From a virus, in IMG/VR virus record IMGVR_UViG_3300046516_001541, positions 16,083 to 80,082 of that record: a stretch of 64,000 nucleotides of DNA. The stretch is one strand, 5' to 3'. How positions within the stretch are numbered: position 1 is the stretch's first letter; each line of letters opens with the position of its first letter. Positions 43,229 through 45,411 of the stretch are shown one piece after another. The notes beneath the pieces were generated by a model that saw only the letters and a program-made list of their open reading frames with translations, was not told the DNA's origin and did not search any database. A program made the translations under genes and the position numbers.

Positions 43229-43657
43229 ATGGCCAATCAGAAAATCAGTACTCTACCAGCCGCGGCGGCTTTGGTTGGCACCGAGCTTCTCGAGCTGGTG
43301 CAAGGAGGCACCAACGTCAAATCGACAGTAGGCGCCATTGCTACCGAGATTGCGACTCCAACCTATTCGGCCGCAGCTCTCACCGGTACGGATAACGTAG
43401 TCCTGCCAGGCTCGGGCGACTATGTTATTTCGGTGGATACCACGGCCGGTCCGATCACGTATACGGGATTTGTCGCGCAGCGAGACGGCCAGAAGCTTAC
43501 GTTCAATTGCGCGGGCGCTAACAATCTGAATTTCTCACCTCGGACAACGTCCGCTGCTGGCAATCAGATGCAGGCATCAGGAATTTCGTCCATTGTCGAA
43601 TTCGACAGCATCACATGGCAATATTCTCAAGGCGTAGGCAAATGGCTACAAATCTGA
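43229..43657 (+). CDS. Fibre adaptor/short fibre protein
   Basis: N-terminal KISTLPAA...GTELLELVQGGTNVK motif common in phage fibre anchors. Confidence 0.6.
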   Translation: MANQKISTLPAAAALVGTELLELVQGGTNVKSTVGAIATEIATPTYSAAALTGTDNVVLPGSGDYVISVDTTAGPITYTGFVAQRDGQKLTFNCAGANNLNFSPRTTSAAGNQMQASGISSIVEFDSITWQYSQGVGKWLQI

Positions 43658-45411
43658 AAACTCTTCTTGCGAGTCTCGTTTTCTCGCTGATCGCCACATC
43701 AGCACTGGCCCAACAATACAACCGGTTCGGGCCCGTCACGGGAGTCCTGAAAGGGAACGTCAGCTCGCCACAGACGTCCGCAGCGACGTCCGCCGACATC
43801 ATTGGCCTCTGGACCGGGACATGCTCAGCATCCACCTTTCTGCGTGGTGACGGGGCTTGTGCAGCTGGAGGCGTGCCCTCTGGCGCGGCCAATTTGGTAT
43901 ATGCGACGCCAAACGGATCTTCTGGCAATGCCACTCTGAGGGCGCTCCTAGGAGCGGACCTGCCACCGATTAATTTGGCATCGACCGCGAATGGTGGCGT
44001 GCTGAGCACGAGCATCCTACTCGGTACCAATGGCGGCACGAGCAACGGATTCTTTTCCATCACGGGGCCGGCGACCTCGCTGAAGACATTCACGTTCCCG
44101 AATGCTTCCGCGACTGTCCTCACTTCAAATACGCCAGTGACAGTTGCGCAAGGGGGCACGGGCGTCGCCACCTTGACAGCCAATAGCGTCCTGTTGGGTG
44201 AAGGGACCAGCAACGTTTCATCCGTGGCGCTGGGTGCGGATACGGTTCTGCGTGGCACCGCTTCGGCGGATCCAATAGCTGCGGCGGTCAATAATTGCGG
44301 CGATGCCACGCACGCGCTGTCATACAACACCACAACGCATGCTTTCGGTTGTCAGGCCATAACGTCCGGGGGCACAGGCACAGTCACCAGTGTCGCGGCC
44401 GGCACGGGTATTACCGCAAGCCCTAGTCCCATCGTAGGCAGCGGTACGATATCACTGGATCTAACCGCTACTAACACGTGGACTGGTCGGCAAACATTTA
44501 GCGGGGGATCCGGGGCGCCCGGCTATGTCACGGGTGCTGCGGCTGCAAGCGCATTATTTGAATTCGCTGGCAATGCTCAGACAGCGGGCACTACGTCCCT
44601 AGCCGTAGGACAGGACACTAGTGGCGACGCGGCAATTATCCAACGGGCCAATCGTCAGTTATATCTCAGCACGAATGGCTCGCAACGAGTCACTGTCTCT
44701 GGTACGGGACGTATTAACTTTCTTGCGCAGACATCGACTGGCGCGGCCGGCGCATCTTTCAATGGGCTCAACAACGCTGACACGGTGCTAGTGCAGAGTG
44801 GAACTACGACATCCCAAGGATTCGGACTGCGCGTACAGGCTGGCACCAACGCATCTGACTATTCGTTTCTAATAAATAATGCGAGTAACGGAACTACTCT
44901 ATTTGAAGTGTTTGGCGATGGCGGAACAGTCGTGGGTTCCCCGACCGGTGGATCACAGGGCGTTGGCACAGTCAACGCGACCGGCCTTTTCGTCAATGGT
45001 GCAGCTACTACCACTCAAACATCAGGAACGTTCACTGGAACGCTGACTGGGATGACAGGAAGTGTCACTGCAACATTTAAATGGCGGAAAATAGGCGGTT
45101 CGCTAGTCACATTATTTCTGGCTACCGGAACGGACCTCACAGGAACATCAAATACTACGGCAATGACCCTAACGGGTTTGCCGGCGGCGATTCAGCCCGC
45201 AATCCAAGTTTGCTTTTACAATGCCTCTGTCGAAGATAACGGTGGCAGTGAAGCGGCGAATAATTGCATTGCGGCCAGCGGCAGCACTGTCACATTCACG
45301 CCAGCCCAGGTCAATGCCGCTCCGGGAAAAGTAGTGGGTGGCGTCTTCACCGCCTCTGGCACCAAGGGCCTAACCGGTCCGTGGCAGATGATTTACGATC
45401 TCGGAAACTGA
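43642..45411 (+). CDS. Tail fibre-like protein with N-terminal signal peptide
   Basis: MATNLKTLLASLVFSLIATSALA/QQ; FLRGDG, VAQGGTG, GTVTSV fibre motifs; 6 Cys. Confidence 0.7.
   Translation: MATNLKTLLASLVFSLIATSALAQQYNRFGPVTGVLKGNVSSPQTSAATSADIIGLWTGTCSASTFLRGDGACAAGGVPSGAANLVYATPNGSSGNATLRALLGADLPPINLASTANGGVLSTSILLGTNGGTSNGFFSITGPATSLKTFTFPNASATVLTSNTPVTVAQGGTGVATLTANSVLLGEGTSNVSSVALGADTVLRGTASADPIAAAVNNCGDATHALSYNTTTHAFGCQAITSGGTGTVTSVAAGTGITASPSPIVGSGTISLDLTATNTWTGRQTFSGGSGAPGYVTGAAAASALFEFAGNAQTAGTTSLAVGQDTSGDAAIIQRANRQLYLSTNGSQRVTVSGTGRINFLAQTSTGAAGASFNGLNNADTVLVQSGTTTSQGFGLRVQAGTNASDYSFLINNASNGTTLFEVFGDGGTVVGSPTGGSQGVGTVNATGLFVNGAATTTQTSGTFTGTLTGMTGSVTATFKWRKIGGSLVTLFLATGTDLTGTSNTTAMTLTGLPAAIQPAIQVCFYNASVEDNGGSEAANNCIAASGSTVTFTPAQVNAAPGKVVGGVFTASGTKGLTGPWQMIYDLGN

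Follow-up and report, generated by a model that had tools for sequence, protein, structure and literature searches.

In a 64,000-nucleotide stretch of viral DNA (hereafter the window), which comprises bases 16083-80082 of the single-contig, 80,082-bp IMG/VR virus record IMGVR_UViG_3300046516_001541, a tail-fibre gene that we call fibre2 encodes a protein whose N-terminus has the form of a cleavable secretion signal. Family matches to portal, major head, sheath, baseplate J and tail fibre proteins mark the virus as a contractile-tailed phage. Export of fibre2 by the host is, in our judgement, probable. We tentatively favour, at a little less than even confidence, the reading in which fibre2 is the exported, disulfide-bonded distal half of a two-part tail fibre that joins an anchor built in the cytoplasm. 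Tailed-phage morphogenesis is taught as wholly cytoplasmic, and hundreds of uncultured relatives share the combination of a leader and paired cysteines on a tail fibre.

The fibre2 gene and the parts of its product are as follows.

43642..45411 (+): fibre2, predicted leader-bearing receptor-binding fibre of 589 aa, defined from its open reading frame (ORF), its start and 315 homologues
43642..43710 (+): predicted Sec-type signal peptide for signal peptidase I (SPase I), residues 1-23, with n-region MATNLK, h-region TLLASLVFSLIAT, c-region SALA and cleavage between ALA and QQ
43711..43971 (+): conserved mature N-terminal domain, residues 24-110 (QQYNRFGPVTGVLKGN ... LWTGTC ... GDGAC), with Cys61-Cys73, from alignments
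45019..45408 (+): C-terminal head domain, residues 460-589, with Cys524-Cys542, from an AlphaFold2 (AF2) model and Foldseek

The N-terminus of fibre2 has the form of an export signal

The reading frame spans 43615-45411 on the plus strand, and translation from the ATG at 43642 gives the 589-aa protein, which begins MATNLKTLLASLVFSLIATSALA and continues beyond the predicted cut as QQYNRFGPVTGVLKGN. The first-pass annotation of this DNA had placed the start at this codon, and the placement holds: an AAGG/TAGG Shine-Dalgarno-like stretch lies ahead of it, the closest homologue (P0002) begins at the same Met, and the conserved residues 24-111 follow. An alternative ATG at 43615 would add only MAIFSRRRQ and so lengthen the n-region and make it more basic, which means that a leader is present whichever ATG is used.

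Leaders were recognized not with a trained signal-peptide predictor but with a crude rule, which asks for basic residues in the n-region, a hydrophobic core free of charge and small residues at -3 and -1. This rule passes 115 of the 121 fibre2 homologues that start with Met, and it flags 11 of the 107 ORFs in the phage genome. In fibre2 of the window, the basic n-region, the uncharged core, the polar c-region and the A-L-A site followed by Q all fit the Sec-type (SPase I) form, and the AF2 model has a helix at residues 2-17 followed by predicted local distance difference test (pLDDT) scores below 50 at residues 20-24.

The alignment of 68 homologues shows which properties of the leader are retained. 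Its median length is 22. Position -3 is A in 44 of them, G in 6, V in 6 and S in 4, and position -1 is A in 48 and G in 13, with the most variable, highest-entropy column (-2) between the two. Net leader charge is +1 to +3 in 63 of the 68 and the last 15 positions are uncharged in 49, while mean entropy is 2.43 over the leader versus 1.46 over the mature start, strong conservation beginning right past the predicted cut with F29, G30, P31, G34 and K37. Since the form and the -3/-1 residues are kept, the sequence drifts, and conservation sets in from +1, a cleaved targeting peptide would be expected at this position rather than a buried structural helix. A search with the N-terminal domain yielded 50 further proteins, in which the FGP motif, where present, lies 21-40 residues in, behind a leader; a leaderless or adaptor-fused version of the fibre2-type domain was not found among 75 more homologues. 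Position +1 is Q in 49 of the 68 and never P; the frequent Gln recalls the signal-peptidase 'Q rule' of Bacteroidota (PMC10367356); an alternative source would be the fibre domain itself.

Further support comes from the relatives of fibre2 that end in the intramolecular chaperone Peptidase_S74, or S74 (PF13884). A C-terminal hydrophobic helix with a basic tail is found in 10 to 13 of the 24 S74-bearing relatives (P0004, P0006, P0010, P0014, P0028, P0054, P0064, P0070, P0071 and P0098 are examples), and the screen for such endings flags only 2 of 217 non-S74 relatives, neither of which resembles a membrane helix. Until self-cleavage, such a helix would keep the S74 end of the chain fixed to the inner membrane. 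A stop-transfer anchor behind S74 makes sense only if the preceding chain has crossed the membrane, which argues for a translocated chain.

The first-pass annotation had read this N-terminus as an export signal and had held a chance hydrophobic end unlikely from two occurrences in the phage. Both views are well supported, and the argument from a leader form kept across 115 of 121 homologues, with small -3/-1 residues, conservation from +1 and stop-transfer relatives, is stronger than the one from two occurrences: judged by the family, the hydrophobic N-terminus is not an accident.

Paired cysteines and a shared N-terminal module

Fibre2 carries six cysteines, correctly counted in the first-pass annotation as three pairs, at 61/73, 219/237 and 524/542 (spacings of 12, 18 and 18). 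Among the 68 aligned homologues, the two cysteines of pair 1, and likewise those of pair 2, mostly occur or are missing jointly: both members of pair 1 are present in 46 and both absent in 5, with only the second Cys within 4 columns in the other 17; for pair 2 these numbers are 51, 14 and 3. Pair 3 lies in the poorly aligned head domain and has no joint pattern of presence and absence. An even Cys count is found in 107 of 115 mature leader-bearing chains (93%), an independent line that points to a translocated chain. The two leader-bearing fibres of the phage have 6 and 12 cysteines, and the adaptor, gpJ, the baseplate protein, the conventional fibre and the chaperone each have 0-1.

The first of these pairs lies in a module, TGVLKGN...LWTG.C...RGDG.C, that is common to fibre2 and fibre1, a second leader-bearing fibre encoded 29.9 kb away. 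The first-pass annotation had proposed that the two share a disulfide module, and the sharing is real: residues 23-98 of fibre2 align with residues 50-131 of fibre1 at a BLASTP E of 5e-7, with 42% identity over 88 columns. The idea that the module is a dedicated link between head and tail did not hold, and we reject it, as the repeat also occurs inside fibres (twice in P0029, and as similar Cys-pair stretches in fibre1).

Fibre1 shares the anchor of leaderless fibres

13701..15572 (+): fibre1, second leader-bearing fibre, 623 aa, 12 Cys, with a leader at residues 1-19 and predicted cleavage between AQA and AQQPVATGT

Fibre1 starts with MRKLSFLASLLLVVAAAQA, followed beyond the predicted cut by AQQP, and a leader is present in 105 of 118 fibre1 homologues. 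Its label as a 'head' fibre derives only from the position of its gene after the portal. The fibre1 anchor motif GDPLRTAFTKLN, in the register AQQPVATGT.., has more than 250 confirmed tblastn matches in IMG/VR. In the 80 best loci (L018-L097), 107 of the 111 anchor-bearing ORFs are leaderless; they start MAQQTINIG..ANDGTGDPLRTAF (in longer form MAQQTINIG..ANDGTGDPLRTAF.KIN, with GDPLRTAF in register) and have 0-3 cysteines. The near relatives of fibre1, by comparison, have a leader with AQA, AGA, TYA or VHG at -3/-1, then AQQPV.IGT, and 4-12 cysteines.

The predicted cut in fibre1 leaves 15 residues ahead of the GD motif, exactly as in the leaderless forms after removal of Met. Because predicted cleavage recreates the N-terminus of the leaderless relatives, the fibre1 leader is, as far as the alignments indicate, an add-on to a domain that starts ordinary leaderless fibres in other phages. 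We consider this match of register the strongest argument that exported fibres would still be meant for the particle.

Fibre1 belongs to a block (12988-17111, portal to MuF-like gene) that holds two small paralogous genes, fibre1 and a leaderless 511-aa pectate-lyase-like protein. In the cultured Pseudomonas phage Dolphis this block is absent from the corresponding position, and the first of the small proteins matches phrog_12296, 'tail fiber protein', at 3e-7. The phage genome has a third leader-like start at 5558-6373 (+), 10.5 kb ahead of the window (…MKTCLYILFVALAAAVMAVIPHPAVAQT; 8 Cys).

A putative adaptor is encoded directly upstream of fibre2

43229..43657 (+): signal-less 142-aa partner with a putative N-terminal anchor of KISTLP type and a C-terminal XD1-like beta-sandwich, from sequence and linkage
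43355..43654 (+): XD1-like C-terminal domain of this protein, residues 43-142, AF2 pLDDT ~80

The ~100 C-terminal residues of this partner (DYV..VDTTAG...TGFVAQRDGQ.LTF...GS.A.NQ...KW) recur directly upstream of a leader-bearing fibre, in 11 of 11 distinct related loci. Searching with the fibre, the domain was found upstream in all seven distinct IMG/VR loci, an eighth (L003, at a contig end) lacking upstream DNA. The reverse search, with the adaptor alone, gave four new loci in each of which the next gene starts with a leader; a variant of the fibre N-terminal domain follows in three of the four, and L016 was judged on its hydrophobic start only.

The C-terminal domain is fused to two unrelated types of putative anchor. 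In the window (KISTLP-type) and in L005 a short N-terminus stands ahead of it, and in P2-like loci a tail-fibre N-terminal domain takes this place; 9 of 10 related loci have the tail-fibre-type domain. Its phrog_12796 match, at 1e-23, was measured on the L002 protein, with which the N-terminal domains of the other loci align. The KISTLP-type N-terminus of the window protein has no family match.

Structural comparison of the C-terminal domain with VIA-align gave seven best matches at Z 7.2-9.7 over 84-93 residues, the next standing at Z 3.9. The seven are CpaA, the Solidus gp83 tailspike, StcE, residues 79-175 of CBA120 TSP4-N and the Pa223 capsid spike, with a single entry for each, and the KP1 baseplate; the match to TSP4 79-175, which is XD1, has Z 7.7 at 18% identity. 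The published XD1 fold set includes CpaA, StcE and TSP4 79-175 (Table 2 of PMC8825819) as well as T4 gp9 and gp10; gp9, which contains XD1, connects the long tail fibre to the T4 baseplate (PMC8825819). A Foldseek search of the adaptor against the PDB returned no match at E <=0.001. From the gene linkage we infer, with good support, an adaptor role for the 142-aa protein.

The C-terminal domain occurs either at the end of short proteins or in long proteins with 3-7 tandem copies, of up to 4102 aa. One leader-bearing fibre, P0263 (456 aa, start FRPATGVLVGN), itself ends in an XD1-like domain of the adaptor type (358-454), a layout that suggests that such fibres can be chained or branched.

Fibre2 has a conserved base and a predicted receptor-binding head

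Conservation in the family is highest over residues 24-110, where P31, G34, A48, L56, G71 and C73 reach >=90%; AF2 models this part with moderate confidence from a 68-sequence input. The C-termini vary across the family (a receptor-binding head, S74 or others), so that shafts and tips appear swappable behind a conserved N-terminus. Fibre2 itself has no S74 domain by Pfam, and its relative P0004 has one (2e-9).

The head domain of fibre2 is predicted with pLDDT mostly at 86-96, dipping to 63-76 near residues 551-570. Foldseek matches it in the PDB to Zamilon Zav_19 (4e-5), reovirus sigma1 (2e-4) and the receptor-binding proteins of the lactococcal phages p2 and TP901-1 (6e-4 to 1e-3). With a head of this fold and a conserved signal-less partner gene upstream, it is well supported that fibre2 is a real receptor-binding fibre, presumably a trimer. 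No relevant relative came from a sequence search of the PDB with the family profiles. Fibre2, fibre1 and the adaptor have no Pfam or PHROG family; fibre2 and the adaptor have no tblastn match among 50,697 cultured-phage records, and the N-terminal 253 aa of fibre2 give chance-level matches only (E >=0.03) against cultured phages.

Fibre2 lies in a late tail operon

The gene order is baseplate J, baseplate protein, adaptor, fibre2, tail fibre, chaperone and lysis genes, and fibre2 has the same position in the related loci that have flanking DNA.

39831..40946 (+): baseplate J-like wedge protein (PF04865 2e-15; phrog_6 9e-32)
41750..43222 (+): baseplate protein with PASTA domain, 490 aa, 0 Cys (PF03793 6e-12; phrog_7378 5e-10)
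45436..46122 (+): conventional leaderless tail fibre, 228 aa, 1 Cys (PF21882 Gp53-like_C 3e-13; phrog_4209 4e-30)
46124..46501 (+): tail fibre assembly chaperone, 125 aa, 0 Cys (phrog_188 2e-11)
46498..46962 (+): soluble endolysin, Peptidase_M15_3 (PF08291 2e-18), N-terminus MNRYLSPSFTLEELS, with neither a leader nor a signal-anchor-release (SAR) sequence
46926..47465 (+): i-spanin-like protein with an N-terminal membrane helix, from sequence, no family match
47149..47436 (+): embedded o-spanin-like lipoprotein with lipobox LSLAAC, in the +1 frame of the i-spanin gene, from sequence, no family match

The start of fibre2 overlaps the end of the adaptor gene by 16 nt, and a scan of the region for consensus promoters and terminators gave chance-level matches, none of them on the plus strand near the fibre2 start. 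Given the overlap upstream and the lack of such a plus-strand site, fibre2 looks like a late structural gene and not a moron. The first-pass annotation had set fibre2 between a signal-less adaptor and a conventional fibre-chaperone pair, and the genes at 43229-43657, 45436-46122 and 46124-46501 agree with that description. Its proposal that the phage has both a cytoplasmic and an exported fibre pathway is consistent with the gene content, that is, with a leaderless fibre and its chaperone (1 and 0 Cys) beside a fibre that is probably exported.

The embedded spanin-like pair, with its lipobox protein, points to a host with an outer membrane. A soluble endolysin requires a large-hole holin, and one would be needed here because the endolysin is soluble, without a leader or SAR; none was identified in the lysis cassette.

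Likeness to known systems

The closest likeness in layout is to the mosaic adhesive trimer (MAT) fibres of Bdellovibrio bacteriovorus, which show that trimeric phage-like fibres exported through Sec can fold (Caulton et al. 2024, PMC10769870). As in the fibre2 family, a signal peptide leads straight into a conserved N-terminal domain, rich in beta structure, and behind it comes a modular trimeric fibre whose tips can be exchanged and in some members carry S74 (PMC10769870); the relatives of fibre2 show a MAT-like split into S74 and non-S74 forms. The MAT genes differ in being chromosomal genes of the predator, whose products are displayed on its own surface, whereas fibre2 lies in the late tail operon of a complete phage genome, coupled to a gene for a baseplate-type partner. 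The family profile matched no PDB chain sequence at E <=1, MAT fragments included if deposited.

The proposed pairing of adaptor and fibre has its likeness in the XD-domain complexes, namely CBA120 TSP4-N with TSP1-3, G7C gp66 with gp63.1, and T4 gp9 with the long fibre, in each of which an N-terminal baseplate anchor with an XD beta-sandwich docks a separately encoded trimeric fibre or spike (PMC8825819). In those complexes, however, the partners are leaderless, assembly is cytoplasmic and docking is through XD2/XD3, whereas the partner here, fibre2, carries a secretion signal. The heads of p2/TP901-1 and sigma1 have the same beta-sandwich C-terminal fold as the fibre2 head (Foldseek E 2e-4 to 1e-3, with a monomer model), but there is no detectable sequence relationship and they have no leader. 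The leaderless MAQQTINIG-type phage fibres have the anchor domain of fibre1 in the same register and differ by having no leader and 0-3 rather than 4-12 cysteines.

Late phage proteins that use host Sec are already familiar among lysis proteins, such as signal-peptide and SAR endolysins, spanins and the T4 antiholin RI (PMC8385771), but these are lysis factors and not parts of the particle. Agrobacterium phage Milano, like the phage described here a soil- or plant-associated myovirus, has disulfides in its tail and host-recognition parts (PMC10811340); it differs in that its cross-linked sheath and tube are not exportable and no leaders were reported (PMC10811340).

A tentative route of assembly and its alternatives

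The route that we tentatively favour would run as follows. Late in infection, the fibre2 chain would be exported by the host Sec system and its leader cut between ALA and QQ, probably leaving a pyroglutamate N-terminus; the three Cys pairs would be oxidised by host Dsb, and the trimer would accumulate in the periplasm. Meanwhile the particle would take shape in the cytoplasm and would there receive the adaptor on its baseplate, and the leaderless fibre (45436-46122) and its chaperone would take the ordinary cytoplasmic route. A large-hole holin would then open the inner membrane, so that the compartments mix before the outer membrane goes, and the conserved mature N-terminus of fibre2 could dock on the adaptor. 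That fibre2 joins the particle at all is something we infer from its gene context and conserved base, and the full two-compartment scheme deserves, if anything, slightly less confidence than the identification of fibre2 as a distal half-fibre. Broader still, and somewhat more doubtful, is the possibility that many uncultured soil and root phages finish part of their host-recognition apparatus in the periplasm and dock it at the holin breach, with either an XD1-type adaptor already in place or an anchor domain belonging to the fibre itself as the docking site.

The main rival is that fibre2 is exported but never enters the particle and instead acts in the host envelope, for example by masking or occupying a receptor, by excluding superinfection, by protecting progeny from debris (T5 Llp being the type of precedent) or as a surface adhesin. 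We regard such a role as unlikely, although all of the export evidence fits it equally well. We know of no tailed phage that assembles virion parts across the inner membrane. Literature searches turned up no account of tail fibres with leaders, of fibres that depend on Dsb or of virions assembled in the periplasm, and so no precedent for post-export assembly onto tailed phages; the Klebsiella DsbA results found there are attributed to receptors, and the 'signal peptides' of a paper on extracellular contractile injection systems (eCIS) serve as cargo-loading tags. The MAT fibres, too, weigh against the two-compartment route, for they have the same layout of leader, conserved N-terminal domain and S74 or other tip in a purely cellular role outside any virion.

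The identity of the partner is open to a similar objection. A profile search finds its C-terminal domain in 5209 representatives at E <=1e-3, a large and uncharacterised family, so that the domain is not specific to adaptors; CpaA and StcE use the XD1 fold to bind glycans, and TSP4 docks its partners through XD2 and XD3, with XD1 termed a spacer (PMC8825819). As the XD1-like domain is so widespread and its fold binds glycans, the 142-aa protein could itself be a small receptor-binding protein, and in the envelope reading it would be one separate from fibre2. Some relatives, moreover, carry the leader on the anchor-type N-terminus itself, which means that an arrangement with the anchor inside and the fibre outside is not general.

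Against an envelope role stands the setting of the gene, which is translationally coupled within a late tail operon with no promoter- or terminator-like site on the plus strand nearby. The fibre2 N-terminus is conserved in the manner of virion-attached fibres, and an adaptor-type gene precedes the fibre in all 11 loci whichever of the two anchor types it carries. Most telling in our view is that the fibre1 anchor is the N-terminal domain of leaderless phage fibres, in the same register once cleaved. Finally, fibre2 has no outer-membrane targeting feature by which it could be displayed at the surface.

Alternatively, fibre2 may not be exported. The hydrophobic end would then serve a structural or assembly purpose in a fibre made in the cytoplasm, whether as a buried helix for trimerisation, as a short-lived tether to the membrane or as a propeptide that a phage protease cuts away, and the disulfides would form after release. 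We consider this distinctly improbable. The fibres of known tailed phages all assemble in the cytoplasm, and predicted signal peptides on the capsid proteins of Porphyromonas phages have been explained as prohead-protease targets. In Milano, disulfides link the sheath, the tube and the baseplate, so that virion disulfides occur without export and do not by themselves imply it (PMC10811340); within the present window, the 511-aa protein (15576-17111) has 9 cysteines although it is leaderless. A buried helix, however, should keep its sequence, whereas what this family preserves is no more than the n-h-c form and small residues at -3/-1, and a basic n-region with an uncharged core of 12-15 residues would enter the Sec or signal recognition particle (SRP) pathway in any diderm. 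Stop-transfer helices after S74 are sensible only for a translocated chain, Cys counts are even in 93% of the mature chains, and the leaderless versions of the fibre1 anchor work without such a helix.

That the leader is an artefact of annotation, with the true start downstream (for example at TTG 43975) and the leader-like stretch untranslated or part of the gene overlap, can be set aside almost entirely, since one public call does begin at residue 112 but homologues on many contigs begin with their own leaders. The call in question, P0001 of the Joint Genome Institute (JGI), is a 478-aa protein from TTG 43975 that drops the leader and the conserved N-terminal domain. Because it leaves out the 111 residues whose protein sequence the family conserves best, no Shine-Dalgarno sequence was found ahead of TTG 43975, and a second public call (Logan) gives 589 aa, the 478-aa version is, to all appearances, too short. 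Automatic annotation may systematically hide the leaders of such fibres in the same way.

Implications of periplasmic fibre completion

Should the two-compartment reading be correct, the last step of assembly would be coupled to holin triggering, and fibreless particles would be expected inside infected cells. The secretion and disulfide machinery of the host (SecYEG, LepB and DsbA) would become host-range factors for infectivity. It would also follow that gene callers mis-start or mislabel genes of this kind, as happened here (478 versus 589 aa), and the cysteine-rich fibres of soil phages would be accounted for. Such a pathway would in addition offer a natural route to disulfide-stabilised binding proteins. 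Even the modest reading, taken alone, would amount to an undescribed class of phage-encoded exported fibre-like proteins with thousands of variants.

Relatives, host and habitat of the phage

The capsid protein is ~49% identical to its counterparts in Bordetella phage PHB04 and Pseudomonas phage Dolphis. In Dolphis, as a related cultured phage, the fibre-region proteins read as leaderless throughout and have 0-3 cysteines. Two pattern scans were made for a host among the GTDB representative genomes, of which the first gave nothing and the second one weak match, to a Candidatus Solibacter metagenome-assembled genome (MAG). The protein P0188 is encoded in the chromosome of Bradyrhizobium sp. STM 3557. 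Among the sequencing runs listed as carrying the phage DNA there are no RNA data sets. The DNA of the phage is present in root and rhizosphere metagenomes from several studies.

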